From Halobacteriovoraceae bacterium (GTDB lineage Bacteria > Bdellovibrionota > Bacteriovoracia > Bacteriovoracales > Bacteriovoracaceae), in NCBI GenBank assembly GCA_963719505.1, contig CAVRCF010000005.1:640001-704000 (forward strand): a stretch of DNA of 64,000 bases. Reading direction: 5' to 3'. The translations under genes and the position numbers were made by a program. Below, in pieces: positions 8,166 to 49,364 of the stretch; positions within the stretch are counted from its first letter, which is position 1; each line of letters opens with the position of its first letter. The notes beneath the pieces were generated by a model. That model ran no database searches. It was not told the DNA's origin and worked only from the letters and a program-made list of their open reading frames with translations.

Positions 8166-8325
8166 TAGTTTCTCCTTATCGGGGTAGACCGCAAAATACC
8201 ACAAAACCAACGCCACGCAACAGAAACCTAGAAGTATGTATTTATTCCATACTCTAAATTATTGATTTCCCGTAAAAGTGTTTCAAAAAGATCAAATATT
8301 TTGAAACAAAAGTCTTGAATTCCCT

Positions 8326-8352
8326 TAATATATAAGAAAGAAAAGCCGACAA
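8326..8352 (+). promoter_or_regulatory. Possible sigma28 (FliA)-type promoter
   Basis: TAAT-N15-GCCGACAA against the consensus TAAA-N15-GCCGATAA. It abuts the AAGGAG RBS, so it could only give a very short leader. Confidence 0.4.
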
Positions 8353-8359: not shown

Positions 8360-10627
8360 GTGAGATATAACTTCTTAATAACTATTCTCTTAATTGGGTC
8401 CACGGCGACCAACTCTTATGCTCAAAGCTGTAAGGAGTTAGTGGATAGTGTTTTTGCAATTGAGACGAAGCTTAAAACAACGACTCTTCCAGCTTGTTCA
8501 ACAAAAGCGAATATAACTGAAGATTGCTGCTCAAAAGGTGATCCTGACTCTTGTTTAAACTTAAACCAAATTGAACTTGATTATAATAAAGCGCTAGCTG
8601 AAGTAAATATTTACGAAAGTCTATTGGCCATTGGCCAAAGCGCAGTTAACGATCACAGAACCATAAAAAGTCTCTCTCAAAAAGAGCTCGCAAGTGCTAA
8701 AGAGTTGATCGAAAAGTTTGATAAAAGCATTAAAAAACGTGATCTTGTTAATTCTGCTTTAGAAATTGATAAGGTTACATCTAAAGATGCAAAAACTCTT
8801 TGGCATGGGTATACGGCAGACAACAAAAGTGATCTCCTGGCAAACCTTACTGACAAATGTAAAACAGCGGCACTCTACCAGCCAAAAGCAGATGAGAAGA
8901 AACCTTATCGAGACTTTTGCGGGCGTCTTCCAAAACTGGAAGAAGATGAAGTCGACACTCTTTATAACTTTTACCTCTCACAACAGAGTATTGAGTCAGA
9001 GGATACTTTAAATAAAATTGGTGATATTGTCCCCCGTTTTGAAGAATACAGTAAGTATTTAGCGATCAAAGTAGACGATAAAATTGTGTCGGGGTCATTT
9101 GAAGGTACAAAGCACTATAAAGAATATATTGAACTAAAAGATTTACTTAAATCTGACAAACAACCTACTGAAGCCGAGGCGATAAAAATTTTATCCAAGG
9201 CTTCTTCACTTTCCAAAGTCTCTATCGACATGGATGATATAAAGTTTTCAGACCAAGACAGCTTTGCTGGGCGCTTCCAAAAAGATGTCGTCAGTGAACT
9301 AAAAACAAATATTCTTCAGACTGAAAGCTCTACAAGTATTCTCACCAATCAGAGTCAAATTTTAAAAAATATTAAAAACGCAGATCAGTCAATGGATTTA
9401 GAGCTTAGAGCGAAAGAGGATGTTGTAAGACAGATGCTTACAGAAAGCGACCGCTTAAGTAACGCTTGTCCAAAAAGCAAAAGCCTCCATGACTGTGCTT
9501 TAACGATTTGTGGAGAAAACTATAATCAAGAAAAAGTATCATGTTCAAATTCTTCCTTTCAAAACATTGGATCTGTTGCGATTGCGAGTCAGATTTCAAA
9601 AGTTGAACAAAGTAGAAAATTAAAAGCTGCCCATAAAAAAATAACTGATTGCGTGAGTAAACGCATTCCACAAGAAAGAGATAAGTGTATAAAAGAAGCT
9701 GATCAGTCGGACCTGAAGCTCACGTCTAACAATCTGTCGGATGCAAAACAGAGACTAGAAAAAGCAAATAATTTATTAAGTTTATACTTGAAAAAAGAAC
9801 CTTTTAATAAGCTTACTGGTTTAAAGAACTTAAATTTAGCCGCGCTTGATGAAAAAGGCTGTATTGGCGAAAAAGACAAAGAACAAAGTGAAAAGATTGA
9901 AAGCTACTGTAAAACGCCTCTGCTAGATGGACATATTACAAATGTTTTAAACCTTGAGTCCTCCGCATCCAAAATCACGTTAAAAATGAAATTTGATTTA
10001 GAGAAAGGTTATTACAAAAAACAATTTGGAGATCACAATTTTGGCTCAAATTTAAATTACGCTAATGAAGTGTGCAAAAAGCAATTCAATGAAAAACTTG
10101 CTGTGTGTGACTATATGCAGGCGGCCAATGAGACAAGAAAACAAAAACTTGTTGAAGCTCAAAATGCAGAAAAACTTAAAGTTCAAAAACAAATAACTCG
10201 AGAGGAAAATTTCTACGCCGGTTGGCAAGAAGAAAACGAGGGACCGACAGCTTTTGAATCGGGACTCACCGGTCTCGCAACTGGTGCAGCACAGGGTATG
10301 CCTCAAATTTTTGGAATGATTCAACAAAAAAGACAACACGACAGACAGATGGATTATTATCAAAGTCTCTATAATTACAGACAAAGAACATACGACTCAA
10401 ACTATACAAATTACCAACCTCAGTATTACTGGAATAACTTTCAAGATCCAATGACTTTTAATGCTGCTCCTACGGCCATGATTGATATGAGTGGTTTTAA
10501 CTACAACTTTCAAACAATTCCAAGTAGTCTATCCAATAACAATGCACAGTCCCCTGTATTCACCTCACCGGCCCCTGCAAGTATTCCAGGAACGGGATCT
10601 AATCTAGGATTTGACTTCGGCAACTAG
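8360..10627 (+). CDS. Large secreted Cys-containing helical hypothetical protein (755 aa) with a Gly-rich hydrophobic segment and Y/Q/N-rich tail
   Basis: GTG start after AAGGAG, signal peptide ending SYA, paired Cys and coiled-coil-like segments. No family recognised. Confidence 0.8.
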   Translation: MRYNFLITILLIGSTATNSYAQSCKELVDSVFAIETKLKTTTLPACSTKANITEDCCSKGDPDSCLNLNQIELDYNKALAEVNIYESLLAIGQSAVNDHRTIKSLSQKELASAKELIEKFDKSIKKRDLVNSALEIDKVTSKDAKTLWHGYTADNKSDLLANLTDKCKTAALYQPKADEKKPYRDFCGRLPKLEEDEVDTLYNFYLSQQSIESEDTLNKIGDIVPRFEEYSKYLAIKVDDKIVSGSFEGTKHYKEYIELKDLLKSDKQPTEAEAIKILSKASSLSKVSIDMDDIKFSDQDSFAGRFQKDVVSELKTNILQTESSTSILTNQSQILKNIKNADQSMDLELRAKEDVVRQMLTESDRLSNACPKSKSLHDCALTICGENYNQEKVSCSNSSFQNIGSVAIASQISKVEQSRKLKAAHKKITDCVSKRIPQERDKCIKEADQSDLKLTSNNLSDAKQRLEKANNLLSLYLKKEPFNKLTGLKNLNLAALDEKGCIGEKDKEQSEKIESYCKTPLLDGHITNVLNLESSASKITLKMKFDLEKGYYKKQFGDHNFGSNLNYANEVCKKQFNEKLAVCDYMQAANETRKQKLVEAQNAEKLKVQKQITREENFYAGWQEENEGPTAFESGLTGLATGAAQGMPQIFGMIQQKRQHDRQMDYYQSLYNYRQRTYDSNYTNYQPQYYWNNFQDPMTFNAAPTAMIDMSGFNYNFQTIPSSLSNNNAQSPVFTSPAPASIPGTGSNLGFDFGN

Positions 10628-10779
10628 ATAGCCAGAAAAAGTTGCTATTTCCCAAACCGACCAAAGTCTATTACTCAAGTACGCCATACACAAATTCAAA
10701 GACTTAGACAGTAAAACTCCTCTATTGGATAATAAAAACCAGCATTTTCTGCAGTCCCTTAAAATATTATTTAAGTTAT

Positions 10780-10806
10780 TAAAATAAGGTCTAAATTGAC
10801 CGAAAA
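10780..10806 (+). promoter_or_regulatory. sigma28-type promoter of the giant lipoprotein gene
   Basis: TAAA-N15-ACCGAAAA, 43 bp upstream of the start. Confidence 0.55.
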
Positions 10807-10849
10807 GTAAGATAGCGGGAAATGAGTCCTGCTAACTATTGGATCGATT

Positions 10850-13800
10850 TTGAAAAACTGGATTGTCTTTTCACTCTTTCTTTTATTCACCGTTACTGGG
10901 TGTATTCCAGGAACGACGACTCCTGCCAAAAGAGAAGCGGCTGGTGATAATATTTCAGACTCTCCTTTTGGTGACGATTCTGAACAGACGACTGTTACGG
11001 AAACCGCATATTGGTTTGATGGTGGAATTAAAAAGCAGACACTAACACTCGATATAACAAATTTAAAAACGACTTTTATCTTTGGTGATGATGTCAGCCT
11101 TCTTCTGTCTGAAAACAATAATAGCTCTAGAAATTACTGCGTCTATGTTGATTTTCAAGCTGGCTTTGGAACCTCTCCAAAACAGCTGAGAATGAGAGCA
11201 ATCCCCTCTTTTACATACGATCCTATCGCTGGCAAAATTAAACGCTATTATCGGATTCTCTCAAATGTCGAATCAGGTAATGAAATCTGTAATGTGGCAA
11301 CGGTTAATTCTTATTCAGGAGCCGGAGTTCCAAACTTTACGGCACCAATTCTAAGTCAGATTTCAAATAGCGTGACAAGCGTTTGTACCAATTGCCTTAA
11401 TATCATTTCATCAACGCAAGTTAGACTCTACGAGCAAAGAGATGGCGCAAATCATATCGTCACAAACGAAACCGTTGCGATGAATAAATTAAATTTCAAA
11501 ATAGATATCAATTCAAATACTGGAAATGAAACACCAAACTGTTCAACACTAAACTGTCAAAACCAAGGTTTTGATTGTTGTGTTAACGGACAATGTGTAA
11601 AAGATGCGAGAGCTAAATTTTCAAGAAGTGAATTAGCAACTCAATTTCCTCAAAGTAACGATGGAGACTCCATTAGTGATGCTCTTCAAGAATTTGATCT
11701 AGCGGAGCTTCTCAAAGGCAGTGACCCTAACTGGTATAGAGACTACCCTCAGTACTATTTTATTTGTCTAGAAAATATTCCAGGTGACGGCGGAAGTGGA
11801 AACGGAGACACCGGTGGTGGCGAGATAGACGAAGCACAAGCCAGACTCAATAGAAATATTCAAGACTACTATTGTATTGAAGAGCTGAAAGAAAATACTG
11901 AAATTGATCCTTTTCACACAGACCCAATAAGCTCAACAGGAACATATACAGTTTGTTCTCTTTCATCAACACCTGGTCAAACACCAAGCACCTATTTTAG
12001 AGATGTCATGACAAGACTCTATGAAAACTGTGGGTGTTCTGAGACTAGTTTCTCAAATATGGTTGCCAACTGTCCAAAGTATACTTATAAGGCAAACTCT
12101 GAAAATCCAAGTCTGACTTTTTCATTGTCGGATATCACAAATTATATGGTGACCAATAGTTTGAGTGACCTCAATGGAGTTACTAACCTTGGAGAGCTTA
12201 CAAAAATAAATTCAATCGAATGTGTCGCTCCACAGGTTGATCCAAATGATCTTCCCTTCCAAGACCTCGATGTTTTAGTACCTTCACGATCCGTTGCTCA
12301 CAGATTTTTTGATCAAAATTCAGATTCAAACGGTAACGATATTGAAATCACTGATGTTGCAAACCTTCCGGTTGGAGCAAGCGGGGTTCAAGAAGGCGCG
12401 GAATTTAGATACTTAGATAATGAGAGACTTTTTCCTGATAATAAAGAGTTTAATATGAACTCTCTACTGGGACAGATGAATGTCAATCTAACCGGAGCAG
12501 TCCCTGCAAAGATAGTTAATGTTGAATTTGATAAGCAATATTATATCGCCACGATTGATGGCTTCTATACCCCTTGTCCGACGTGTGCGAAAGACTCTTG
12601 GTTTCCAAGTTTCTCACCAAATCCAAACACAAACTATGGCGTTGGTCTCACAAGTATTGGTCACACAACCAAAAGAGATGCATGGGGATCAAATTCAACT
12701 TTTGGAAACTACGAAGATACAATCTTTGGTAGAGCATGTTGGCTTCCTCCAACGATGCTTCCATTTTCTCACCTATCACTGAGTTCAAAAAAATCTCAAA
12801 GACTAAACCGACTTAAAACACAAGCCGCTATGTATGTTAATGGCTATCAAAGAGATTGGTTTGGATTTAATAAAGGTGCTCTCATTGGATCCTTTGACGG
12901 TGTCAGCTGGTTTGCTATCGGTAAAGGAAGAGTGGCAAAGTCCACAACAAATAAGCTCTACTTAGCTATTAACGCACCTTTTGGTGACCTAACCTCTCCA
13001 AACGATCACCTAGTTTCAGTTCAAGAGTGGGACTTTATCACAACTGGTGCTCAGTATGATTACAATATCGATTTAAGTATTAATCACCCAAGACAAAATG
13101 AAGCCGGTCAATGTCAAAGAAGTCACCGCTGTGAGACTGATTCAGACTGTATTACTCAGCTGGGCTGGGAATATGCATGTGCCGATATCAATTCGATCAA
13201 AACATCATGGCCTAAATTCTCAGTAGAAGGTGCCAACGAAATTGCCAATGATCCAAGATCTGGCACTATCTTAAGCCTTCTCAACCAACAAGTTCTTCCA
13301 CCGGGCACAAGTTCTAGAAAATGTGTCTACCGAGGAGCGGGTTCTCCTTGTCGAACTGACTATGAGAATATTGCTGATGAAAACTTACGTAAAACACTTA
13401 CCTGTGCACCAAATTTTTACTGTGCAGATCTTGATACAAATGCGGTCTTTAATAATGAAATTGCAAGATATGGTCAACCTCTAGAGAACCTTGCTTTGCC
13501 GGCGAATCACCTTTTTGGTCAAGAAGCAAATATTCTAGGACGCCCTAAACAATATATGGCCAATGGAGTGAGTGCACTCTTTTCTTTGCCTACGGATGTT
13601 AAAACCACAATTACTGACAACTTAGAAGTCACTAACCCAGGCATTGGAACAAACGCTGGGATTTGTCGCCCGGGTAAAAAACTTCCAAAAAGAAACCTCG
13701 CTGGAATCAATGGCACACAAGACTGGAAACCGGCAGATCAACACACAACTTTTGATCCCGACTATAGAACAGACTACATCTCTCAAATTGCGGGATGTAA

Positions 13801-16486
13801 TAGTGCTTTCTTTAGCTCGATGAAAACGACAAGCTGTCCAGTCCTTGGATCAGATGGAAATTACGAATTTACAAAAGATAGCTTTATCAATACATCTGAT
13901 CTCTTTAAGGCAACTGAACTAAGCCGCTTAGCAAATAGTCAAAACTCTTGTGGTTTAGAGTCTATTAATCCAGCGGCTATTATAAACTCTTCGACAACCG
14001 CTTCTGACCTTCGAGATGATTCAGCTTTTAAACTCATCGAAGGAAGACCACTCAGTAGCTCTAGCGTAAACTTTGAGCCAACCCTCACCAGAGATGCCTG
14101 TTTTAGAAGAGCCGGTTCAGTTTGTCACACAGATCTAGACTGTTCTCCAAACTATAAACACGCTGAGCTTGTTGATATTATCAACCCAGCTTTCTTTGGT
14201 AATGAAGCTGAGAAAAAGTATTGGACTGAAAGTTTAGTTTGTGGGCAAGGCGCTGATGAACCTAGAAATGTGAATGATCCAACATTTAACACTTATAATA
14301 TTAGACGAAACCTTTGTTGTAGAGAAGTTGGAAAAGATATAACAATCTACACAGAAAAAACTCCTGGTGTTGCAGGAATTCCAAATTTTACGGAAACTCT
14401 AAACTCACGAAAACTTGCAAGTACCTTCCCTAACGATCCGGATAGATACTCTCGTTTTAGCGTCCTAGACGAAGGTGTCGATCCAGTTACAGGTGAAGCT
14501 CTTTTTACTCCGCCAAACGCATCAACTGAAAAAGATAGTAATGATGAATTAGTTGAAGTTAATAATATCCTTCAAGGTAAACAGTGGAAAGTTATCAATG
14601 AGACGGCAACGAGAACTTGTTGTGGTGGTGGCTGGATTAGAAAGTTCGCTGACGGGACAAATAACTGGCAAATTAACCGCCTCAATCTTGATGTTAATGA
14701 CTTTAAATGTTTAAACTTTAGAACTCCTCTTGTTAACACAGAAAATCCAGAATTTTTTGGATTAACACCTGGGCAAAATAGTCAAGACTCTCAAAATACA
14801 TGTCTTGATCCTGGCCTTGCTGGAGCTGGTTGTTCCCAATATGTGGGCTCTCAGGCAATGGGTGCTCTACAAAATCAAATTATAAAACCAAGACTTATAA
14901 AACCAAGGCCGAATCGTCAAAGTGGAAGAATGAAACTCCACTCTGATCCACTTGAGATGGTTGATAACGATAGTTGGAGTAATTTTCTTTGGTCATTCAA
15001 TGAAATGTCCTCTGCTGACACTAACCCTCTGACTTACCTGGATTGGAATCTGCCAAGAGACGAGGTTACTAGGAGAAACATCTCTGTTAGCCTCCCGTCT
15101 TTCATAACATGGCCAGGTGACTATGATTTATTAGGTGAAAACTTATCAGACGGCTTTATCACTCCTTCAACAATAACTACGGGTGTAACTGTCAGATTAG
15201 AAAGCCGAAATAGCGCAGGATCAATCGATGGAAACTACTACAATCAATGTGCCGAATTACCTATTCAAGGAACTGGTCCTGGGACAGATTGTTCAAGTGG
15301 TACAGGTTGGTACGGTATATGCTCACCGGATCTTCCTGACGTAACAACTTCTGCCTTTAATAATGCTTGTGCAGCAGCGGTGTCCGTACAAGGAACTGAT
15401 CCGTGCTGTTACATGTATGATAAATTCTCTAGGATTTTAAAAGTCGCTTACACGTTTGGTGTAACCAATCAAGATCAGTCATATGGTAAACATAAAAAAG
15501 ACTTTATTATCGAGTTTATAGCTCCTGGAACAGAGCTTTGGGAGTCTGTCACGGTGGACTCTTCAGTCCTTGCTAGTGACTCTGTCTCAGATGCTGCTTT
15601 TCCTGCACAAGGCTCAGTTGCAGATCACAGAAGATCCTCGCTACCTGGGAATGCGACTTATTATCTTGATAAGCTTTCGAAACTTGAACTCATAGGTATT
15701 CCTCAAATTAATTATGAGCCTTTATATTGTAATGATAATTATCAAAAGCTTGTACCTGGAATCTTTAAGGAAGCCACTACTGGTGGGCCATTAACTAATA
15801 TCAACGAATTTAACCAACACCCCGATACTTTTATAAGTAATGAGTTGGAGTACGGAAATGATAAGGCTCCATTTGGTGTATTCTTAGCTGGAGATTCGGT
15901 CATGGACTATACCAATATCAATCAGCCTTATGTTACAACCTCTCAACTGCTTGATCACGAACCAGTGTTCTCAGCTGATGAGTTCATGTGCTGTAAGCCT
16001 CTAGGGACTCAAATTGATCTCAACGTTGAGGACGGAACGGCTTGTTGCTCTGGATTTGCAGCATCTGGACAAAATAGCTCAAGTGGTGGGCTTGGAAAAT
16101 GTATGCTCGCCCCTGGAACTGACCTTCATGTCTATTTTAATAAGTTTGTATCGGGAGAAGGTATGAGTGAGGAGATCGAAAATCCTCTGACAGAGAGTGA
16201 TTTTGACGAACTTACCGGAACACCTAAACTTGAACCAACAATCATTAATAAAATGCAGGATATCGCTCGAGAGTACTGTACAAGTGGTTCGTTTACCCAA
16301 GGTGCAGCTTATGGACCATTTAACGCCGAACCAATCGGAGGCCTAGGTCAACAACAAGGATCAGGGTCGGAGTTTAGCTTTATCGACTCGATAAATGATA
16401 GCGGAACAAACAATCAAGATCCGGCTGGGTATAATCCATTCTCGGCTGGTTATAGATGGAATAATCATATATACTGCCTCGATTAA
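10850..16486 (+). CDS. Giant (1878 aa) Cys-rich lipoprotein, function unknown
   Basis: Uninterrupted 5.6-kb ORF with TTG start, lipobox-like VTG-C after a hydrophobic stretch, and recurring CxTDxDC and CC motifs. Confidence 0.85.
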   Translation: MKNWIVFSLFLLFTVTGCIPGTTTPAKREAAGDNISDSPFGDDSEQTTVTETAYWFDGGIKKQTLTLDITNLKTTFIFGDDVSLLLSENNNSSRNYCVYVDFQAGFGTSPKQLRMRAIPSFTYDPIAGKIKRYYRILSNVESGNEICNVATVNSYSGAGVPNFTAPILSQISNSVTSVCTNCLNIISSTQVRLYEQRDGANHIVTNETVAMNKLNFKIDINSNTGNETPNCSTLNCQNQGFDCCVNGQCVKDARAKFSRSELATQFPQSNDGDSISDALQEFDLAELLKGSDPNWYRDYPQYYFICLENIPGDGGSGNGDTGGGEIDEAQARLNRNIQDYYCIEELKENTEIDPFHTDPISSTGTYTVCSLSSTPGQTPSTYFRDVMTRLYENCGCSETSFSNMVANCPKYTYKANSENPSLTFSLSDITNYMVTNSLSDLNGVTNLGELTKINSIECVAPQVDPNDLPFQDLDVLVPSRSVAHRFFDQNSDSNGNDIEITDVANLPVGASGVQEGAEFRYLDNERLFPDNKEFNMNSLLGQMNVNLTGAVPAKIVNVEFDKQYYIATIDGFYTPCPTCAKDSWFPSFSPNPNTNYGVGLTSIGHTTKRDAWGSNSTFGNYEDTIFGRACWLPPTMLPFSHLSLSSKKSQRLNRLKTQAAMYVNGYQRDWFGFNKGALIGSFDGVSWFAIGKGRVAKSTTNKLYLAINAPFGDLTSPNDHLVSVQEWDFITTGAQYDYNIDLSINHPRQNEAGQCQRSHRCETDSDCITQLGWEYACADINSIKTSWPKFSVEGANEIANDPRSGTILSLLNQQVLPPGTSSRKCVYRGAGSPCRTDYENIADENLRKTLTCAPNFYCADLDTNAVFNNEIARYGQPLENLALPANHLFGQEANILGRPKQYMANGVSALFSLPTDVKTTITDNLEVTNPGIGTNAGICRPGKKLPKRNLAGINGTQDWKPADQHTTFDPDYRTDYISQIAGCNSAFFSSMKTTSCPVLGSDGNYEFTKDSFINTSDLFKATELSRLANSQNSCGLESINPAAIINSSTTASDLRDDSAFKLIEGRPLSSSSVNFEPTLTRDACFRRAGSVCHTDLDCSPNYKHAELVDIINPAFFGNEAEKKYWTESLVCGQGADEPRNVNDPTFNTYNIRRNLCCREVGKDITIYTEKTPGVAGIPNFTETLNSRKLASTFPNDPDRYSRFSVLDEGVDPVTGEALFTPPNASTEKDSNDELVEVNNILQGKQWKVINETATRTCCGGGWIRKFADGTNNWQINRLNLDVNDFKCLNFRTPLVNTENPEFFGLTPGQNSQDSQNTCLDPGLAGAGCSQYVGSQAMGALQNQIIKPRLIKPRPNRQSGRMKLHSDPLEMVDNDSWSNFLWSFNEMSSADTNPLTYLDWNLPRDEVTRRNISVSLPSFITWPGDYDLLGENLSDGFITPSTITTGVTVRLESRNSAGSIDGNYYNQCAELPIQGTGPGTDCSSGTGWYGICSPDLPDVTTSAFNNACAAAVSVQGTDPCCYMYDKFSRILKVAYTFGVTNQDQSYGKHKKDFIIEFIAPGTELWESVTVDSSVLASDSVSDAAFPAQGSVADHRRSSLPGNATYYLDKLSKLELIGIPQINYEPLYCNDNYQKLVPGIFKEATTGGPLTNINEFNQHPDTFISNELEYGNDKAPFGVFLAGDSVMDYTNINQPYVTTSQLLDHEPVFSADEFMCCKPLGTQIDLNVEDGTACCSGFAASGQNSSSGGLGKCMLAPGTDLHVYFNKFVSGEGMSEEIENPLTESDFDELTGTPKLEPTIINKMQDIAREYCTSGSFTQGAAYGPFNAEPIGGLGQQQGSGSEFSFIDSINDSGTNNQDPAGYNPFSAGYRWNNHIYCLD

Positions 16487-16498
16487 AAGGAAAATAAG

Positions 16499-16981
16499 TT
16501 GAAAGATTCAAAGTCCCCCAGCGAAAGTGAAATTCAAATGCGCCAAATGGTTATGCCTGGCGATACAAATATCCATGGAACTATTTTTGGTGGAAAGATA
16601 ATGTCTTGGATTGATATCGCCGGTGCAATGGTTGCTACCAAGCACTGCGAGAACCCTGTTGTCACTGCAAACATATCAGACATAGACTTTTTTTCACCTA
16701 TTAAGGTTGGATACCATGTCATCATTAAAGCATCAATTAATTACGCTGGTAAAAGCTCAATGGTCATAGGTGTAAAAGTTGAAAGTGAAAATCCCTACAC
16801 GGGTAAAGTCAGAAAAACAACTAAAGCCTATCTCACCTTTGTGGCATTAGATGAGTATGGAAAGCCCGTCGCAGTTCCTAAAGTCTCCCCTCAAACGGAT
16901 ACGGAAAAAAGAAGATACGAAAATGCTAAAAAAAGGAAAGAGGCTAAAATCAGTCTTAATAAAACTCTAGCAAATGATTAG
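16499..16981 (+). CDS. Acyl-CoA thioesterase (hotdog fold, YciA-like)
   Basis: PGDTNIHGTIFGGKIMSWID, VVTA, GKSSM and YLTFVALD motifs. Confidence 0.92.
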   Translation: MKDSKSPSESEIQMRQMVMPGDTNIHGTIFGGKIMSWIDIAGAMVATKHCENPVVTANISDIDFFSPIKVGYHVIIKASINYAGKSSMVIGVKVESENPYTGKVRKTTKAYLTFVALDEYGKPVAVPKVSPQTDTEKRRYENAKKRKEAKISLNKTLAND

Positions 16982-17004
16982 ATAATGGGAAGTTTTAACT
17001 TCCC

Positions 17005-20000
17005 CTATTGTTTTTTCTCATCCAAAAATTTTGAATATCTTAAAATATATCTTTTTGATAAAAGCTTAAAAATTGAGACATCTTTTTTCTTTGAGATATC
17101 GTCGTGCTTCATTTCAAAATCACTCATTGAGACCGCTTCTTTATCTGATCCTAGATCCTCCATAAACGAGCCGTCATCGCTTCCAAAATCTAGGTCCATT
17201 CCGGGAGTTGTTGCAACTGCTGGACTCGTTGGAACTTTATATCCCGTTGGCAACGAGTCTTTCTTTTCTTCTTTCTTCTCTTCTTCAGAATTCGTAGCAA
17301 TATTTTTCGTCGGAAGCCCACCAATTTGATTCCTTCCAGCATTATCAAGAAGCGTTTTCCTAATTTTAGCGACTCTTTCTTGTAAAGATCCAACACTATC
17401 AGCGATCTTTTTATCTCCGCCTTTCATCATCTTATCGTACTCTTTTCTATTTTTATCGTTCTTAGCACGGATGGCATTATTTAAACTCTCCATTTTACCT
17501 AAAGTCGCATCATCAAATGAATCACCTGTTAATTTTCCATTTGCTCCAAGAGAGTTAAAATCACTCATTAGGTTCGCTCCTTGAACATAAATAGATCCAG
17601 CACCTGAACTAGCTCCCATCTGTAAGGATGGAACAGTAAAATTAGACCTTGGGCGAGTCGGTCCACAAACAGCTGGTGAGTAACCACTTCCGTTCTTCTG
17701 AACACATGCGGTTTTGCCTTTGAATCCGTTCGGATCATTTGGATCAACAGAGGCGAGATTTAGATCAACTCCTCCTCCACCTTCTCCAAGTCCGTTCGTA
17801 TTAACTGCTGATTTTTCGAACTTCTCTTTTTCATTTTTCACAATTTCTAGGTTTTTCTTTGCTTGATCGTAGGAGTCTTTAGTCATTTTAAAAGATACCC
17901 CAGACATGGCACTCAAAGCTGCCCAAGTTATGGTTCGTCCAATTGGTGAGGTTAAACCCGTTCTTTTCATAAATTTTCCAAGCATCCCATGTAGAGTGAC
18001 TATATTACCCGTCAATTTAAGAACACTAGACCATGGACCATCTATTGCACCAGCTCCTGCAGAAACTCCTGCACCAATAAGAGTTGCTCCCAATCCTGCA
18101 TTTGCATTTGGAACAACTAAATCAACAATACCAGCTAAAATATTTTGAAAATTCTTTTTCTTAGGATCAAAAGTTTGATCCTTGTATAAATAATAGAACT
18201 CTTCTTCTATAAACTGATTAATATTTTTCAATATTTTATCAACTTTTAAATTAATTTTTACAATTTTATCAATATTATCTTGAGCACTTATATTTTTACT
18301 AAACTGGAATTGTTCGAAGGCAATTTTTCTAATTTGTGCTTCGAAGGCATTTTTGAAAAAGAACTTTGAATCCTCTAATTCCTTTAGTTTTTTATTGTCC
18401 AGTTGCGGTGTCATCATTGCATTTTTACCAAAAGCAAACAGATTACGAACTTTGATGTCTTTATTTAAAGAGGCAGTACCAGGTGCTGCTGGTACCCCCT
18501 GGATTGGCAAAGTTCCATTCTTTCCTATTTCTAAGCCTTTTGTAGGAAGCAAATCTCTAGGAACACCAATTATTGACTCTACAACAGATTTAACAATCCT
18601 ATTAATTATCGTTGATTTTGTCGTATCTGCTAGTTTACTTTGAATGACTTCATAGTAATTATCAGTCATTGATCCATCTATTGCTTGCTCAATTGGCACC
18701 GTAATACCTGGTCCGCCACAGCAACTCATACCTTTTTTGAAATATATACTCAATGCTGAAGTATATTGCTTTGCAAGGATTCCTGTTGTCGGTCCCGCAG
18801 GAACACAGAGTTCAGCTTGTTTCTCTAGAGCAACGCTACTTGCTTTCAATTTCATAACCTGCGCTCCTGTAGCAACGGAAATCGCTGAAGCCGCTATTTC
18901 ATCGGCAGTCTCAATAGCAATATCCACAGCCCCTGATCCAAGCTCAAAACCTTTACTTAAAGAATCACCAAGAAGATCATTGCCGCTTATTTTAGCGACA
19001 TCAGTTAAAAACTTGGTTGAGGAAACTAGCTCTTTTCCCTTTCTAGCAGTATCCAAAGTAACTTTTAGACCTTGTGCTTGAGCTGCAATTTCATCAGCAG
19101 CTTCATTTGCTCGGGCAGTGATAGAAGTAGCTTTTACACCAATACAAATTCCAACTAGAGCTGAGGCTGTACCAAATGTCCCAGTAGACTGCGCAGTAGC
19201 AAGTGATATGTCTGATATTATCTTGGTTTCTAATGCAGCAAACTTGGCTTGATTTGAAGCCTTTTTTGGAACTTTAATTCCCCACTCCGCTGTGCAAATA
19301 CTATTCATCGACAACATATTAGCGATCTCAATTCCGTCTGAAACACCGTAGCCAATTGAAGAAGCTAAAGCCATTCCCTTTTTAACTTTTAAAGCATCTA
19401 CCTGCCCCTCTATTATTTTAATCAAAGCCTCATAAGCCTTCATTTGTTTATCATCTTCTTTTTGTGCATGGATTTGTTCATCTGAACCATCTTTTGCCTG
19501 GCTACAAAAGCCAGATCAGTTGCTTCTTTTGCAAATTTTGAAACTTGGTATTCGAAACTAAGTCACCAACAACTAAGGATAAACCCGACAGTGCTAGCAA
19601 CAGGTATACCAACCATAGCACCAAAGCTACTGTTTACAATCTCTCCCATATGCAATTGGGTTGTACTTGTATAATCTTTGATAGTTTAACGAATTGATTA
19701 AAATGACACCTGTCAAAGCAACAATATATTGTTCAATAAATCCAGGAAGCTTTTCTAGATATTTTGTCACCCTTTTCGTTGTACCTAGCAGTAGACTTAA
19801 AACTAGTTGCCTTCAAAGCATCATTAAAATCACACCCCGGAACATAATACTCTCCATCGCTCTTGCTCATCAGTTCTACAGTCGGGCTGCAACTGTATCC
19901 TGCGCATAAACGACTCCAACCCTTGGAATCGGCATAAGGACAAAGCTCAGCATCATCACAGAAGATACAAATCCAGTTGTAAGTCTTTTCAGAGAATTTT

Positions 20001-20016
20001 TTAGAGTGTTTTTCAT
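17005..20016 (-). CDS. ~1000-aa secreted protein with Gly/Ala-rich hydrophobic segments; 5' part (about 19440-19890) broken by several frameshifts in this sequence
   Basis: The 812-aa ORF 17005..19443 has no signal peptide. An ATG at 20016 opens MKNTLKNSLKRLTTGFVSSVMMLSFVLMPIPRVGVVYAQDT (signal-peptide-like), and coding-like segments in alternating frames connect the two. Confidence 0.7.
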
Positions 20017-20151
20017 AATTATTTCCAGTGTTTGGTTTAACTCATTTTAACAATAGACGTCTTTCGCCTTAACTAAAAAGAGCCAAACCACTGATAACAC
20101 AAGGAAATCGTTGATTTAGCTCTCTACATTTTGACCACTATATTTGGCTAT

Positions 20152-20910
20152 TTAAGATTTCTTATTCTTTTTTGATTTTTTACCTTTTTTGCCACCCTTT
20201 AACTTCTTAAGGGCGAAAAGAGCTGCGAGCGCAATCCCTCCATAAATCATGAGGTCTTCAGTATCACTTCCATCATCTTTCTTTCTCTTTCTTCCTACTC
20301 CAATATCTGAAAGACCATCTGTAGGAGCGAAGACTTCATCGTCAAAATTTGCTCCTGCATTTTTCTTCCCAAGTCTGAGATCAGCAAGGTTTTGTTTCTT
20401 TTGTCTAAAGACTCTAAGAGTTGCAACAACTTTATCAAAAATACCTTGATAAGATGTAAAGAGCTCTTTAGTGACTGAGAAAGTTACAGCGACACCAAGA
20501 TCTTCTTTAACGGTTGCAAGATAACGAGTATAAAATCCAGGAACCTCAGATGCTAGGTGCAAAGAGTCTGCCCATGAATGGTTATTGATTTGCTTAAGCT
20601 TCGTATACTTCGCTTCAGATCTTTGCATCTTACCGCCTGGTAGCTGATAGGTTTTACCTTTATTAAGATAAGCTTGATACTCAGCAAGAGAGTCTTGCTC
20701 TCCACGAATCTTAGCGGCTAAAATGATAATCGCCTCTTTTCTTCTATCTTGATTTTCAGACTGACAAACCCATTCACTTCCTTCAATTGCACATTGCCAA
20801 CCTGCTGGAAGATCAAATTGAATGTACTGGTTGGAAAACGTCTTTGCGTTCACCGAAAGTGAGAAAAAGCTTAAGATAACGCTTAAAGCTATCAAATTCG
20901 ACCTAATCAT
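20152..20910 (-). CDS. Exported protein (possible PsbP/DcrB-like fold) with C-terminal TM anchor and Lys-rich tail
   Basis: Signal peptide ending VNA, FDLPAGW start of the mature domain, and C-terminal LMIYGGIALAALFAL followed by KKLKGGKKGKKSKK. Confidence 0.75.
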   Translation of the reverse strand: MIRSNLIALSVILSFFSLSVNAKTFSNQYIQFDLPAGWQCAIEGSEWVCQSENQDRRKEAIIILAAKIRGEQDSLAEYQAYLNKGKTYQLPGGKMQRSEAKYTKLKQINNHSWADSLHLASEVPGFYTRYLATVKEDLGVAVTFSVTKELFTSYQGIFDKVVATLRVFRQKKQNLADLRLGKKNAGANFDDEVFAPTDGLSDIGVGRKRKKDDGSDTEDLMIYGGIALAALFALKKLKGGKKGKKSKKNKKS

Positions 20911-21016: not shown

Positions 21017-21760
21017 ATGAACAATAAAACTCAGAGATTTAATATAGTTGGACCCTGCTCAATGGAAAGCCGTGAGCAAATTGAAGAAGTCTTCAAGGTG
21101 GCACAAAATCTTGGTTTAACCTATGTTCGCGCTCAGGTTTTTAAACCGAGAACAAACCCAAATTCTTTTCAAGGTCTTGCAGATGAGGGAATCTCTATAT
21201 TAAAAGAGCTCAAGTCCTCATACCCAAAGATTAAGTATGTCTGTGAGGTTTGTTCGAATGAGCATTTTGATAAATTAAAAGATGTTGCTTCGGTGATTCA
21301 AATTGGTGCAAGAAATATGCAAAACTTTGAACTTCTAAAATATGTCTCTATGAATTTTAAAAATGATTATGTGCTTTTAAAAAGAGGTTTTTCAAATACT
21401 CAAAAAGAGTGGCTCTCCTCTGCTGATTATCTTATGAGTGGTGGAATTCCAAAAGAGAAAATTATTCTTTGTGAAAGAGGAAGTCGATCTTATACCTCTC
21501 CAACAGGAGTGAGTCTTGATTTTATAAATGCTCTTATGGCCCGCGAAGCTGGATTTAAAGTCATTATCGATTCTAGTCACGGAACTAAGGAAGCTCGTTT
21601 TGTTATTCCTCTAGCGAAAGCTGCTGTGGCCATGAACTTTGATGGTGTCATGATAGAAGCTCATCCTAATCCTTCTGAATCAGTGAGTGATAGAGATCAG
21701 GCGATTGGCCTTGATGAATTAAGTGAGTTTTTTAACGGATTAACCCAGCGCGAGCAATAA
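21017..21760 (+). CDS. DAHP synthase, class I-beta, catalytic barrel only
   Basis: GPCSME, FKPRT..SFQG, QIGARNMQNFELL, LKRG, LCERG, DSSHG and EAHPNP..SD motifs. Confidence 0.88.
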   Translation: MNNKTQRFNIVGPCSMESREQIEEVFKVAQNLGLTYVRAQVFKPRTNPNSFQGLADEGISILKELKSSYPKIKYVCEVCSNEHFDKLKDVASVIQIGARNMQNFELLKYVSMNFKNDYVLLKRGFSNTQKEWLSSADYLMSGGIPKEKIILCERGSRSYTSPTGVSLDFINALMAREAGFKVIIDSSHGTKEARFVIPLAKAAVAMNFDGVMIEAHPNPSESVSDRDQAIGLDELSEFFNGLTQREQ

Positions 21761-22919
21761 CTCCAGGCTTTAACTTTTGCTTTGAAAACTTTTTGGTGAT
21801 TTTAACAATCGACTTTGAAGCCCCAACTTTAACAACATAACCTGATGCAATCAATTGGTTTCCCTCTAAATAATCAAAAAAGTAAAAGTCTACTTTTGAT
21901 CCCTTATCGACACCCGTCTCTAAACCCATATCGACTGAGACAGCCCTTTTACTTTTTGACACTTTCGTAATCGTCCCTTCATATTGGTACTCTTTAAATT
22001 CAGCATCAAACTGCTTGAAGTTATTACTACTAGATTTTCTTCTTACCAGGTTTAGTAAGAATTCATTTCCTAAAACAGTTGAGTTTCCAGATATTCTTGA
22101 GAGCGTTTTAAATTCTACTCTCCACATTGAGCCAATCCCAATATTGATACCAAGATAGGGAGCTGTCCAACTTCTATTTATACTATTAAACTCTGGTGAA
22201 CTCGCTCGAGAAAGCTGTGGTTTTTCTTCAGGATCATCAGAGAATGCATCTTGATTAAGAGAATAAACATTTTCAACGCCAAAAAGCATAGTAAAATATT
22301 GCCAAGCAAAAGCGACTTCAATTTCGGAATAAATCTCGGATGAAAGTTTCTCTCCAGGGTTTCTATACAATACTCTTCCCGAAAAGAAATTTTGATCTTC
22401 GGTCATAAAGGTAAAGCCACCACCAGCTGATAACTCCGTGGACCCCTCGCCTATGGCCGTCGCCTCTGGCACCTCTTGAACTTCACTCACTTCAAAGTAC
22501 TCATTGTCATAGGTGGCATTTCTATAATTGACTTCGAATGAATATTGGAGCTGATTAACCATGGGAAACGAATACTTTAATTGAACAATAATAGATTCAA
22601 GACCGGAGGCAGAAAGCTTTTTTTCTTCATTATCAAAAGTACCACTGGCTTGGACGAGTCTAAAATTGGCACCAATACTTGTTTGCAGTTGGCTTGTGAA
22701 TCCGTACTTAAAATCTAGCAGAAGATCTGTTCTGAAATAACCTTCATTCTCTTCAAAGTCTTCCACTTCGCCATTATCATTTGAAAATTGAGTTGGAATA
22801 AAAAAAGTTGTATTGGCACCAAACTCGGTGCCCTTTTCATCAAGAGTCTCAGTCTTATTGATGTATGATCGCGCCACAGCACCAAAAGAGAGAGAAAATA
22901 ATAACAGAAGTTTTAGCAT
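21732..22919 (-). CDS. Exported protein, probable outer-membrane beta-barrel with a small C-terminal FlgT_C-like beta domain
   Basis: Signal peptide, alternating aromatic beta-strands, and C-terminal VSVDMGLETGVDKG..VVKVG pattern. Confidence 0.55.
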   Translation of the reverse strand: MLKLLLLFSLSFGAVARSYINKTETLDEKGTEFGANTTFFIPTQFSNDNGEVEDFEENEGYFRTDLLLDFKYGFTSQLQTSIGANFRLVQASGTFDNEEKKLSASGLESIIVQLKYSFPMVNQLQYSFEVNYRNATYDNEYFEVSEVQEVPEATAIGEGSTELSAGGGFTFMTEDQNFFSGRVLYRNPGEKLSSEIYSEIEVAFAWQYFTMLFGVENVYSLNQDAFSDDPEEKPQLSRASSPEFNSINRSWTAPYLGINIGIGSMWRVEFKTLSRISGNSTVLGNEFLLNLVRRKSSSNNFKQFDAEFKEYQYEGTITKVSKSKRAVSVDMGLETGVDKGSKVDFYFFDYLEGNQLIASGYVVKVGASKSIVKITKKFSKQKLKPGVIARAGLIR

Positions 22920-23646: not shown

Positions 23647-24937
<1,291 letters not shown>

Positions 24938-26989: not shown

Positions 26990-27445
26990 TCAATCATAGT
27001 CCCTTGGGGTCCAGTAGCTTGGTTTCTCACTCGCAACTTCCCTTGTGGGCATTATACTTTCAGGCTCTTTACTTTCCGTAGGTTTTTTAAGAACCGTGAT
27101 CAAACCTTTGTAGTGACTAGAGGGACAATAAAACTTGTACTCCCCAGCTTTTTTAAACACCGATTCACCATGGGTGATCTTTCCCTTAGTCGCTTCTAAA
27201 AAGATCTTATGATCTTCAACAACTAAGCACTCCGGTTTATCAATCGTTGAAGTGACAAATAATTTAATTTTGTCTCCTTCAAAAGCCACAATCTTCTGTG
27301 GAAAATATCCGCCCTCGGTTAAGATGACAGAAAACTCTCGATAAGGGTGTTCAAAAACTTCAGCTCTATTTTGAGCATCACTCTTCTTCATTAAACTTAT
27401 CGGTAAAACCAATAAAAATAATAAGAAAAGACATAGATTTTTCAT
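26990..27445 (-). CDS. Exported cupredoxin-domain protein
   Basis: Signal peptide, YFPQKIVAFEGDKIKL and GEYKFYCP..HYKGLITV cupredoxin C-terminal pattern. Confidence 0.7.
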   Translation of the reverse strand: MKNLCLFLLFLLVLPISLMKKSDAQNRAEVFEHPYREFSVILTEGGYFPQKIVAFEGDKIKLFVTSTIDKPECLVVEDHKIFLEATKGKITHGESVFKKAGEYKFYCPSSHYKGLITVLKKPTESKEPESIMPTREVASEKPSYWTPRDYD

Positions 27446-27483: not shown

Positions 27484-27510
27484 TTATCGGAAAAACAAGA
27501 AAAAACTTTA
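27484..27510 (-). promoter_or_regulatory. sigma28-type promoter of the cupredoxin-cpaF-repeat protein operon
   Basis: Minus strand TAAA-N15-TCCGATAA, a near-perfect consensus 38 bp upstream of the ATG. Confidence 0.75.
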
Positions 27511-27837
27511 ATCTAGAGTAAACTGATCCTCTATTTTATAAACTTCAAAAGCTATTTCCTCGTAAGGGTGTGAATTCTTTAAGGCAGCGAGAGCACCTTG
27601 CATTTGGTTTTCTAAAACTAATATTTCCACCTTAAGCTCTTGCACTGTTTCTAATTTATCCTGACTACCTATAGCAGGAGAAGAGCCATGCAAGGGTTTA
27701 AACTGACCCATTCCCAATGTTTCGAAAGAGCAATGAGAGTAGTTTCCAATACACCCCGCCCCTGTTGCAAAAATAGTTTTCTTTACTAAATTGGCCGATT
27801 CTTTTGGTACGAAAAAGATAAGTTTATATTTCTTCAT
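27508..27837 (-). CDS. Stand-alone NIF3/YqfO-type PII-like domain protein
   Basis: YKLIFFVP..GAGCIGNYSHCSF..GQFKP..HPYEEIAFEV. Confidence 0.85.
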   Translation of the reverse strand: MKKYKLIFFVPKESANLVKKTIFATGAGCIGNYSHCSFETLGMGQFKPLHGSSPAIGSQDKLETVQELKVEILVLENQMQGALAALKNSHPYEEIAFEVYKIEDQFTLD

Positions 27838-31617: not shown

Positions 31618-32450
31618 TTAGCCAATTAGTCTTAATGCATTTTGACCTTGAGCATTTGCTTGAGCAAGCACTGAAGTACCAGCTTGATTAAGAATGTTGT
31701 TAGTCGCGTTTTCAGCAGATACTTTAGCGTAGTCTACGTCTCTGATTCGAGAGTTAGCTGCACTTAAGTTTTCAGTTGAAGTCTGTAGGTTGTTACTTGT
31801 AGAAATCAATCTGTTTTGTATTGCACCTAAGTTTGCTCGTTGACCAGAAACGTTTTCAATTGCTGCATCTAGTACCGCAAGAGACTCTTGAGCACCTTCT
31901 TTAGAGCTAACGTCTATTCAGTCAATTCCTAATGCTTCCATTGAAGAATTTGTTTTTTGAGCATCGAAAGAGATTCTATCTTGAAAATCATCATTGTTGA
32001 TACCAATTTGAAAGTCTAGTTTTCCACCTTCCATCGAGAAGTTTTGTTCCGTTAAACTCAGTAACTTGAGAGATTCTTTCAATCTCTTGTTTTAAGTTTT
32101 GATATTCCATATTTGTAAACGCTCTTTCCGTATCACCGACAGTATCTGAAGCTGATTGGATTGAAAGTTCTCTAAGTCTTGTAAGCATTGAAGATACTTC
32201 ATTCAAACCACCTTCGGCTGTTTGAATAAGAGAGATACCATCATTAGCGTTTCTGTTTGCTTGTTTAGTTGATCTGATTTGTGCTTTTAATTTTTCACTG
32301 ATTGCTAGACCAGCAGCATCGTCAGACGACTTTTGTAATTCGTGTTCCACTGGACATTTTTGCTAGTGTACTTTCTGTTTGTGCATTACTTTTTGAAAGT
32401 GATCTTTGTGCTGCAATAGACGAAACGTTTGTGTTAATACGGAAACCCAT
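31618..32450 (-). pseudogene. fliC: Flagellin copy A, disrupted in this sequence (+1 near 32333, -2 near 32030, in-frame TGA at 31918-31920)
   Basis: Aligns end to end with the intact flagellin at 33481-34314 (833 vs 834 bp). GGAGG RBS, MGFRINTNVSSIAAQR start and NALRLIG end. Confidence 0.85.
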
Positions 32451-33480: not shown

Positions 33481-34314
33481 TTAGCCAATTAGTCTTAATG
33501 CGTTTTGACCTTGAGCATTTGCCTGAGCAAGCACTGAAGTCCCAGCTTGATTAAGAATATTGTTTTTAGCGTTTTCAGCTGAAGCTTTAGCGTAGTCTAC
33601 GTCTCTGATTCGAGAGTTTGCTGCACTTAAGTTTTCATTTGAAGTCTGAAGGTTGTTAGATGTACTAATCAATCTATTTTGTAGTGCACCTAAGTTTGCT
33701 CTTTGACCTGAAACGTTTTCAATTGCTGAATCTAGTACCGCAAGAGACTCTTGAGCACCTTCTTTAGAGCTAACGCCTATTCCGTCAATCCCTAATCCTG
33801 CCATTGAAGAATTTGTTTTTTGAGCATCGAATGAGATTCTATCTTGAAAATCATCATTGTTGATACCAATTTGAAAGTCTAGTTTATCCCCACTTCCATC
33901 GAGAAGCTTTGTTCCGTTGTACTCAGTAACTTGTGAGATCCTCTCAATTTCTTGTTTTAAGTTTTGATATTCCATATCAGTAAACCCTCTTTCCGTATCA
34001 CCGACAGTATCTGAAGCTGATTGGATTGAAAGTTCACGAAGACGAGTAAGCATTGAAGATACTTCATCCAAACCACCTTCGGCTGTTTGAATAAGAGAGA
34101 TACCATCATTCGCGTTTCTGTCTGCTTGTTGAGTTGATCTCATATTTGCTTTTAATTTTTCACTGATTGCTAGTCCTGCAGCATCGTCTGCCGCTTTTGT
34201 AATTCGCGTTCCACTGGACAGTTTCGCTAACGTATTTTCCGTTTGAGCATTACTTTTTGAAAGTGAACGTTGAGCTGCAATAGATGAGATGTTTGTGTTG
34301 ATACGGAAACCCAT
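33481..34314 (-). CDS. fliC: Flagellin (277 aa, D0/D1 only)
   Basis: RINTN, LSSGTRI..AADDAAGLAIS, NANDGIS.IQTAEG, RANLGALQNRL and SRIRDVDYA motifs. Confidence 0.97.
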   Translation of the reverse strand: MGFRINTNISSIAAQRSLSKSNAQTENTLAKLSSGTRITKAADDAAGLAISEKLKANMRSTQQADRNANDGISLIQTAEGGLDEVSSMLTRLRELSIQSASDTVGDTERGFTDMEYQNLKQEIERISQVTEYNGTKLLDGSGDKLDFQIGINNDDFQDRISFDAQKTNSSMAGLGIDGIGVSSKEGAQESLAVLDSAIENVSGQRANLGALQNRLISTSNNLQTSNENLSAANSRIRDVDYAKASAENAKNNILNQAGTSVLAQANAQGQNALRLIG

Positions 34315-35986: not shown

Positions 35987-36912
35987 AGAAAGGTCTTGAG
36001 TTCTGAAATTCTTGAAACTTCTTCACCTTCAAGAGAACCATCGTCCTCTAAACATCTTTTACCATCACTGGAGCAAATATTCACTCTTTGGCAAGATCGA
36101 CTAGAGTAAATATAGTCCTGTTTTCCACGAACCAAAATCCCCTCTACTTCCATGGATTCTGTATTGAAAACAGGTGAACCTGAGTTTCCACCAAATGTAT
36201 CAAGAGAGGTAACAAAGTATTCTTTTCTTTGTGTTTTTAAAACTTCAGCGCCAGCTGCAACCTTTTTTGGTAATCCACTTGGATGCCCAATAACAGCTAA
36301 TTTATCACCGACTTTAACCTTCCCCTCTTTTCTAAGCTTTAAAGGACTAATGTCTTTGACCTTGCGATCAAGTTGAATAATGGCAAAATCTGACTTACCC
36401 GTGACCTTAGCAAAGATAACTTTCTTACAACTATAAACATGACTCGCGCTTATATCTTTGAGCTTAACTTTAGACTCGCCTTTATTAATTTGATAGTTGA
36501 AAACCCAATCATTATTCTTGCAATTATCATTCGTCTTGTTTTCAATCACACCATCACCATCTAAAAGGCAGTGACCAGCGGTAACCAGCTTATCTTCACC
36601 GATAAAGAACCCCGTGCAATTTGCAACTGTAGGTTGATCAGCAAATCTTTCATCCCGGCAAACATCTGCACCCCAAGAATCTGAAAGTAAGGTCACATCC
36701 GTGAAAGAAATAGTTTGTACGCCAGACACTCGCTTTGATGAATACGAATACTTTGCAACCATTCCTGCAACTGCTACAGAAGCTTTAAGTAACTTTTCAT
36801 TTTCAACGTCTTTAACGTCTTGTCTATTATCAATACCGTAAATAACTTTTGGCGAAGTCGCTTGCGCCGAACCTAAGAAAGCGATGGAAATCGCTAGTGA
36901 AACTTTGAACAT
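35983..36912 (-). CDS. Secreted S1 trypsin-like serine protease (start set at MFKV)
   Basis: Signal peptide, VIYG.DNR, VTAGHC, SDFAI and GGNSGSPV. Confidence 0.92.
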   Translation of the reverse strand: MFKVSLAISIAFLGSAQATSPKVIYGIDNRQDVKDVENEKLLKASVAVAGMVAKYSYSSKRVSGVQTISFTDVTLLSDSWGADVCRDERFADQPTVANCTGFFIGEDKLVTAGHCLLDGDGVIENKTNDNCKNNDWVFNYQINKGESKVKLKDISASHVYSCKKVIFAKVTGKSDFAIIQLDRKVKDISPLKLRKEGKVKVGDKLAVIGHPSGLPKKVAAGAEVLKTQRKEYFVTSLDTFGGNSGSPVFNTESMEVEGILVRGKQDYIYSSRSCQRVNICSSDGKRCLEDDGSLEGEEVSRISELKTFL

Positions 36913-37089
36913 CTTTATCCCCCGATGGCTCAAAAATCCGATTTATTGAACGCTATGACAATTAACTATGAAAAATATTCAGACACTTTTTGCTGTCTAT
37001 TACCTTTTTACACCCATCAAGCTTCTTTCTTTCTTGAAAAGGTGTCACGTGTTATAAGAACCACACTATTATTACCCTTTGGAGAAAAC

Positions 37090-38550: not shown

Positions 38551-38574
38551 TCTTAACGTAAATTGGGGAAAGAA

Positions 38575-39510: not shown

Positions 39511-39517
39511 TAAGCGA

Positions 39518-49355: not shown

Positions 49356-49364
49356 AGTCCGATC

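Follow-up and report, generated by a model that had tools for sequence, protein, structure and literature searches.

A conserved P1-P2 gene pair of the Bacteriovoracaceae with FliA-type promoter motifs, a candidate attack-phase envelope module

In the predator Bdellovibrio bacteriovorus, FliA-type (sigma-28) promoters mark attack-phase genes, many of them non-flagellar, and the consensus TTAAG-N16-CCGATA was found at 92 of 140 attack-phase promoters, as stated by Karunker et al. 2013 (PMC3627812). The same paper counts cell-surface proteins and many uncharacterised proteins among the FliA regulon. The FliA dependence of such promoters has been shown with reporters, and fliA could not be deleted, according to another report (PMC5430801). 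Here, we analysed a block at positions 8360-20910 of a 64,000-nucleotide stretch of DNA, hereafter the window, from a Halobacteriovoraceae bacterium (contig CAVRCF010000005.1, positions 640,001 to 704,000, assembly GCA_963719505.1, called G000 below). The block carries five open reading frames (ORFs), namely P1, P2 and a thioesterase gene on the plus strand, and P4 and P5 on the minus strand. The results showed that P1 and P2 very probably are a real, conserved, family-specific two-gene module under FliA-type promoters. The best overall explanation, to which we give a probability of about 50%, is that P1-P2 would be an attack-phase envelope module, possibly glycan-binding, with P4 and P5 separate from it. 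Prey recognition and entry are still poorly understood in the marine and freshwater members of the Bacteriovoracaceae (Halobacteriovorax, Bacteriovorax).

Export signals were present in all four of P1, P2, P4 and P5, and none of the four gave a family in Pfam or NCBIfam scans. The ORFs thus bear out a preliminary description of this block as four exported proteins of no recognisable family accompanied by a thioesterase, including its accounts of P1 as a protein of 755 amino acids (aa), of P2 as a Cys-rich lipoprotein of 1878 aa and of P5 as a C-terminally anchored protein of 252 aa. The elements of the P1-P2 module are as follows.

8325..8351, plus strand: FliA-type promoter-like site before P1, TTAAt-N16-CCGAcA, ending 8 nucleotides (nt) before the GTG start
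8360..10627, plus strand: P1, 755 aa, GTG start, signal peptide, 17 Cys
10779..10805, plus strand: FliA-type promoter-like site preceding P2, TTAAa-N16-CCGAaA, with 44 nt between it and the TTG start
10850..16486, plus strand: P2, 1878 aa, TTG start, about 200 kDa, signal peptide and lipobox Cys18, 57 Cys
12251..13036, plus strand: LecA/PA-IL-like beta-sandwich in P2 (residues ~468-729), lectin-like by predicted fold, with large insertions

The distribution of the module was examined by direct homolog searches in 41 related genomes and by a broader profile search for the P2 core in 67 genomes of the same family and 233 from other families of the phylum, with family membership (Bacteriovoracaceae) taken from record titles. 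P2 was found directly in 22 of the 41 relatives, comprising 21/24 within the family and 0/16 outside it. The core profile detected P2 in 63/67 same-family genomes, mostly and in fact nearly always with two copies per genome, and in 0/233 genomes from the other families. A search of 1.84 billion representative proteins with the P2 family gave no more than 369 matches (E <= 1e-3), which fell into two score groups, and a search of the ESM Atlas gave no usable match for P2. P1 was found directly in 5/41 relatives, each time immediately upstream of P2. Synteny was assessed in 80 public loci with a P2 ortholog, all of them titled Bacteriovoracaceae, Halobacteriovoraceae or similar. The order Ffh-HAD-Dus-P1-P2-thioesterase was conserved, with Dus upstream in 62/80 loci and the thioesterase downstream in 51/80. 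Being nearly universal in its family and not found in the 233 other genomes, P1-P2 is a concrete and testable candidate for attack-phase envelope biology.

The promoter sites carry much of this assignment. Both sites in the window matched 9 of the 11 bases of TTAAG-N16-CCGATA with exact spacing, which makes them FliA-type promoters by sequence. A relaxed pattern, T[ACT]AA-N14-17-CCGA[TAC][AT], was used to scan 250 nt upstream of each gene at 56 orthologous P1-P2 loci. The motif was present upstream of P2 in 35/56 loci and upstream of P1 in 28/56, against an expected background of 0.03 per 300 nt. At control genes of the same loci it was found in 0/54 (Ffh), 0/12 (HAD), 0/57 (Dus) and 1/51 (thioesterase) cases. 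The sigma28-like promoters that had been proposed before P1 and P2 therefore recur at orthologs far above background. No sigma-28 motif was present upstream of P4 or P5 in the window. A strict Escherichia coli-type pattern, TAAA-N14-16-GCCGATAA, gave a single match in the window, at 3429 within a gene, and was set aside as too strict for this lineage. In the mechanism that we propose, P1 and P2 would each be transcribed from their own FliA-type promoter and would be made in the free-swimming attack-phase cell.

Sigma-28 promoters are classically flagellar, and the window itself holds flagellin genes with such sites (33481-34314); in G000 as a whole, sites of the type TAAAG-N15-TCGAwA were seen by eye in 4 of 8 regions upstream of flagellin genes. 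P1-P2 might then be associated with the flagellum, in its sheath or at its base, as ordinary late sigma-28 genes unrelated to prey, and a membranous sheath could house an outer-membrane lipoprotein. Sheathed flagella, however, also occur in some of the other families of the phylum that are represented by the 233 genomes in which P2 was not found, and the two genes adjoin Ffh and Dus and no flagellar cluster. Moreover, FliA of B. bacteriovorus controls many non-flagellar attack-phase genes (PMC3627812). We consider a flagellar role very unlikely.

P1 was hardly traceable by sequence similarity. A tblastn search with P1 gave matches in only 10 of the 80 P2 loci. A same-strand ORF of at least 300 aa ending at most 700 nt upstream of P2 was nevertheless present in 62 of the 68 loci with a complete P2. 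The ORFs in this slot were mostly 640-880 aa long (median 681 aa, 13 Cys), 58/63 had an N-terminal hydrophobic signal, and 49/63 were joined by an iterative hidden Markov model search. In an alignment of 45 members the mean column identity was only 17%, with C167, C187, C501 and C517 invariant and C24, C431, C572 and C583 conserved in at least 90% of the sequences. Because the slot, the signals and the Cys residues are conserved at 17% identity, P1 is, judging from its sequence, a real and rapidly diverging secreted protein with paired Cys (six or so conserved pairs). Its C-terminal tail is rich in Q, N, Y, G, S and P. A complex prediction with P2 residues 19-430 and P1 residues 22-605 (45-row alignments), in which the choice of the P2 domain was guessed, returned 'no answer' with a score of 0.00, which is evidence neither for nor against contact.

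In P2, an N-terminal domain is followed by a conserved core (residues ~440-1345) and by a C-terminal domain (~1590-1878) that is conserved as well. At the end of the P2 signal peptide there is a lipobox (...FTVTGC), the Cys18 of which was invariant across 45 orthologs with the consensus L-x-S-C, so that P2 is a lipoprotein by sequence and would presumably be sorted to the outer membrane by the Lol system. Cys makes up 3.0% of P2, compared with a median of 0.9% across the ORFs of the window. One of the 57 Cys is predicted to be lipidated, and the other 56 would allow up to 28 disulfides. The core alignment of 78 sequences contained 23 invariant Cys as well as many invariant Asp, Glu, His and Arg, and the core was strongly conserved (38-70% identity). 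P1 and P2 may together form an oxidatively folded structure in the envelope or on the surface.

Such a structure might serve rigidity and not prey recognition, as a disulfide cross-linked structural layer in the envelope of the non-growing attack-phase cell, comparable by analogy to the Cys-rich outer-membrane complex (OmcA and OmcB) of chlamydial elementary bodies. The high and conserved Cys content of P1 and P2, the lipoprotein nature of P2, the promoter type of the non-replicative phase and the strong conservation of the P2 core would all suit a layer of this kind. However, the paired and evenly spaced Cys suggest intramolecular bonds, the lectin-like domain would be left unexplained, and Pfam, NCBIfam, PDB sequence and Foldseek searches gave nothing that resembled OmcA or OmcB in sequence or fold. 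On balance this proposal appears rather unlikely.

The P2 core (residues 440-1345) was modelled with AlphaFold2 (AF2) from the 78-sequence alignment, giving a mean predicted local distance difference test score (pLDDT) of 86.7 and a predicted template-modelling score (pTM) of 0.85. The model was compact and had no structural-repeat character. Foldseek against the PDB gave no match for it at E <= 0.001, and a PDB sequence search with the P2-core profile returned nothing meaningful. When the model was compared by VIA-align, the best match, located on model residues 29-290, was the lectin LecA/PA-IL (3zyb_A, Z 8.1, root-mean-square deviation (rmsd) 2.6, 113/121 residues aligned), followed by PllA (5odu_A, Z 7.7) and EclA (6ygq_A, Z 7.4), with the next unrelated match at Z 3.8. 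A repeat search gave 2vxj_B at Z 8.2 and the next match at Z 2.9. This stretch of P2 thus has a LecA-type beta-sandwich fold (Z 8.1-8.2, rmsd 2.6-2.7), and many of the polar and aromatic positions that are invariant in the core fall within it. The VIA-align comparison probed model residues ~29-294 well and 295-906 barely, so we make no claim of a novel fold in the latter. No solved structure was found to match the confidently modelled core except at the lectin-like domain, which suggests a glycan ligand. We also searched a limited literature library for the P2 family and found no account of it, which is no proof of unpublished status; the paper that fitted all the aspects concerns Bd0675.

The many invariant Asp, Glu, His and Arg in the core and its compact, confident model might also be expected if P2 were a large enzyme of the periplasm or the cell surface, with glycans or cell walls, for instance, as its substrate. 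The conserved core would then be catalytic and P1 a regulator or chaperone, and carbohydrate-binding-like modules often accompany glycan-active enzymes. However, no similarity to a catalytic fold or family was found, though the structure search barely covered model residues 295-906. We regard an enzymatic role for P2 as quite improbable.

For P1-P2 as an attack-phase envelope module, the lectin-like module of P2 would bind a glycan, most likely on prey, and the preliminary idea of an adhesin or scaffold fits this domain, which is predicted by its fold. That P1-P2 acts in prey contact in this way is a tentative proposal, doubtful but deserving attention. A more specific version, in which the pair would be a prey-recognition and attachment device of the Bacteriovoracaceae, with the P2 lectin gripping prey sugars, P1 tuning the choice of prey and the paralog locus described below serving as a parallel device, seems unlikely.

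The second copy of P2 lies in another conserved locus (G000, contig C2, 98441-115206). There, the P2 paralog has 1684 aa and 53 Cys, and its neighbours in G000 are a gene resembling undecaprenyl diphosphatase, a membrane protein of 776 aa encoded on the opposite strand, an 878-aa HExxH lipoprotein and a protein of 1022 aa that is rich in Cys and Q and has a sigma-28-like site. The order, consisting of the paralog, a gap of ~266 aa (UppP-like in G000), an opposite-strand protein of 500-790 aa and a protein of ~1050 aa with ~20 Cys, was seen in 10/10 genomes examined. BLASTP of the block proteins against the neighbours of the paralog locus gave only the match between P2 and its paralog. Homology of P1 to the ~1050-aa Cys-rich family was considered as well and was not supported (hhalign probability 0.4%).

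The remaining elements of the block and its flank are listed below.

16499..16981, plus strand: YciA-like hotdog (4HBT) acyl-CoA thioesterase, 160 aa, no signal peptide, starting 13 nt after P2
16987..17004, no strand assigned: GC-rich hairpin, terminator-like, between the convergent thioesterase and P4 genes
17005..19443, minus strand: open part of P4, the longest ORF, 812 aa (836 codons stop-to-stop)
19444..20016, minus strand: N-terminal region of P4, signal-peptide start at 20016, sharing its frame with the main ORF, with stops between
20152..20910, minus strand: P5, 252 aa, signal peptide, PsbP/Mog1/DcrB-like domain, C-terminal transmembrane (TM) helix, Lys-rich tail
21732..22919, minus strand: 395-aa protein of unknown family, outside the block, a conserved upstream neighbour of P5

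The thioesterase belongs to Pfam 4HBT (E 5.6e-19, 68.7 bits against a cut-off of 20.6 bits), and it scored 77 bits with the NCBIfam YciA equivalog, below the cut-off of 162 bits. It is probably co-transcribed with P2. In a subclade (loci L069, L077-L081, L083, L095, L097 and L102), three genes are inserted between P2 and the thioesterase, identified by Pfam in L079 as znuABC, a zinc ATP-binding cassette transporter. Because znuABC is inserted in a subset of the loci, the adjacency of the thioesterase reflects synteny, not function, and this cytoplasmic enzyme is a syntenic passenger.

P4 had been described as a convergent protein of ~1000 aa. As an open frame this could not be upheld, since the longest ORF has 812 aa; the intact homologs of 982-1017 aa make a length of ~1000 aa biologically reasonable. 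Between 19887 and 19490, within the first ~190 codons, there are 7 frame changes. In a frameshift-aware alignment of this scrambled start with the 987-aa homolog P0271, 147/215 residues (68%) were identical, compared with 58% for the rest of the gene. Since 68% identity is retained once the frame changes are allowed, the coding information of P4 is undamaged apart from the insertions and deletions (indels). Other genes of the assembly are broken in a similar way. The enolase gene (23647-24937, minus strand) reads as two ORFs of 353 and 104 aa with a truncated C-terminal TIM-barrel match, and the split of this essential gene points to assembly indel errors. A flagellin gene (31991-32438, minus strand) and fliA (G000, contig C3, 303559-304238) each match their family in two frames, likely through assembly frameshifts, and a GTPase-like gene, of translation-factor type by eye (G000, contig C2, 119217-120913), looks split too. 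Given the retained identity, these split genes and a marker completeness of 83.5% in 5 contigs, the 7 frame changes are likely assembly errors, and P4 is probably intact in the organism. The scrambled P4 also warns against taking broken genes in G000 as real.

P4 has hydrophobic segments rich in Gly and Ala as well as a CCGGPG motif, and its C-terminal end is basic and conserved. The hydrophobic Gly/Ala stretches noted in the preliminary description are present and were kept in two homologs. P4 is not Cys-rich, having 7 Cys (0.9%). Among 5.8 billion clusters only 2 homologs of P4 were found (987 aa, 58% identity; 982 aa, 39%), and the direct search gave matches in 5/41 relatives, two of them strong. 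For an intact homolog, structural neighbours in the Atlas were all below a TM-score of 0.35; the model was poor (pLDDT 0.39), and Pfam and NCBIfam gave no lead either. No lead towards a pore-forming or translocator family, the kind of protein with which the preliminary description associated such helices, came up in these searches. With a P4 profile, P4-like ORFs were found near P5 in 3/20 family loci, in differing orientations. P4 is a fast-evolving occupant of a variable spot next to P5, and its range is underestimated by the direct search. In a sister genome, P4 is directly preceded by an ORF of 102 aa (L031, 20406-20714, minus strand) whose end has a TM helix and a Lys-rich tail like those of P5, and a full P5 lies near the end of another contig of that genome, through rearrangement or an assembly join.

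P5 ranges far more widely than the other exported proteins of the block. It was present in 37/41 relatives, with 13/16 for those from outside the family, and had 1449 homologs; among the names listed, nearly all were 'hypothetical protein' and two, from JGI, 'LPXTG-motif cell wall-anchored protein'. A Cys40-Cys49 pair and the motif SEVPGFYTRYLATVK are conserved. The AF2 model of P5 (60-sequence alignment, pLDDT 81.8) gave 35 Foldseek matches in the PDB at E <= 0.001, led by PsbP (2xb3, E 1.6e-7, TM-score 0.67 by target) and including Mog1, DcrB, LpqN, Tsi3 and EagT6/SciW, and thus has an alpha-beta-alpha sandwich fold. Membership in the Pfam PsbP, DcrB or DUF1795 families was not found, the sole Pfam match at E <= 10 being unrelated (0.038), and neither the P5 sequence nor a P5 profile gave anything meaningful against PDB sequences. 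In the Foldseek searches suggested in the preliminary description, the P2 core had no PDB match at E <= 0.001 and P5 had a common PsbP/Mog1/DcrB-like fold. A reading of the P5 tail as a GlyGly-CTERM or sortase-like sorting signal was dropped, as NCBIfam gave no match.

The gene for the 395-aa protein adjoins P5 in 16/20 family loci, and a trio of a 2'-5' RNA ligase-like (LigT) gene, the 395-aa gene and P5 (20152-20910 and 21732-23547, minus strand) is kept across the family. In the genus of the window, an inserted DAHP-synthase-family gene (21017-21760, plus strand) separates the 395-aa gene from P5. P5 is a phylum-wide, C-tail-anchored periplasmic protein that belongs to this different conserved trio.

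The preliminary description had joined the four exported proteins into a single surface apparatus, in which P4 would insert into the membrane and P5 would act as the anchor. Their adjacency in the window, the export signals on all four, the Gly/Ala segments of P4 and a tandem P5-P4 pair in one genome (G013) would be in keeping with such an apparatus. Co-conservation, named beforehand as the test that could refute it, fails for the block as a whole. Within 10 kb of P2, P4 was found in 1 and P5 in 0 of the 80 loci, and in G013 the P1-P2 pair and the tandem P5-P4 pair lie on different contigs. P4 and P5 also have no sigma-28 motif, and the fold of P5 is a common one and its conserved neighbours are other genes. 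Because the phyletic ranges and synteny of P1-P2, P4 and P5 differ, the block is not one machine, and a four-protein apparatus, largely refuted by synteny, has hardly any chance of being correct. The 12.5-kb block joins three unrelated pieces, namely P1-P2, P4 and P5. What survives of the exported surface system first proposed is the conserved P1-P2 pair with its conserved FliA-type promoters; P4 and P5 stand apart as bystanders, and the four-protein claim is trimmed to that extent.

Elsewhere in the window, intergenic sigma-28-like sites were seen on the minus strand at 27485-27511, before a cupredoxin-like gene (26990-27445), at 49330-49356, before a truncated CheA-like gene (48393-49295), and at 59806-59832, before a gene for a 265-aa unknown protein (58986-59783). 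Next to the flagellin genes, the region 34643-40862 encodes a cluster of hydrolases that are likely to be secreted, namely a subtilase of family S8, a trypsin-like protease, two proteins with glutamine-deamidase-like domains and an S41 peptidase.

Several observations weigh against our explanation of P1-P2 as an attack-phase envelope module, possibly glycan-binding, with P4 and P5 separate. The assignment to the attack phase is read from a promoter motif. The relaxed motif was missing from 21/56 P2 loci and 28/56 P1 loci, and the -10 element of the flagellin genes of G000 uses TCGA, not CCGA, a one-base difference in the core. In many loci (L031-L108), the P1 -10 box ends just 7-11 nt before the predicted start. 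This suggests that the mRNA has no leader or a very short one, unless the site overlaps the ribosome-binding site by chance. As for glycan binding, the Pfam scan of P2 gave 0 families at E <= 0.01 and thus no PA-IL membership, and a Z of about 8, obtained with a predicted model, is a level that the tool flags as possibly 'a common arrangement'. Conservation as strong as that of the P2 core would be expected of a structural or enzymatic part more than of an adhesin that sets the prey range, and most of P2 (residues 1-440 and 730-1878) and all of P1 are without a functional lead. Finally, the 3/20 loci with P4-like ORFs near P5 leave room for a loose P5-P4 link.

Compared with known systems, P5 shares its fold with PsbP, Mog1, DcrB and LpqN (Foldseek E 1.6e-7 to 8e-4, probability 1.0), many of such proteins being periplasmic or lipoprotein scaffolds. 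It differs from them in having no sequence-family match and in its C-terminal TM anchor with Lys-rich tail and conserved disulfide. The lectin-like domain of P2 differs from LecA, PllA and EclA in its low identity (10-16%), ~145 inserted residues, the lack of a Pfam match and its place inside an 1878-aa lipoprotein. LecA, PllA and EclA are small soluble proteins, and LecA is a tetramer; the beta-sandwich is nonetheless shared over nearly the whole lectin. The chlamydial OmcA and OmcB differ from P1 and P2 in size by far, and Pfam, NCBIfam and PDB sequence searches gave no sign of homology between them, but the two pairs would resemble each other by analogy as Cys-rich envelope proteins, one of each pair a lipoprotein, of a non-replicating infectious form in a two-phase life cycle. 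Compared with the FliA regulon of B. bacteriovorus, P1 and P2 belong to another predator family, gave no homolog when 233 genomes from the other families were searched and are linked to FliA here through the motif. What they share with that regulon, as presented in PMC3627812, is the promoter architecture.

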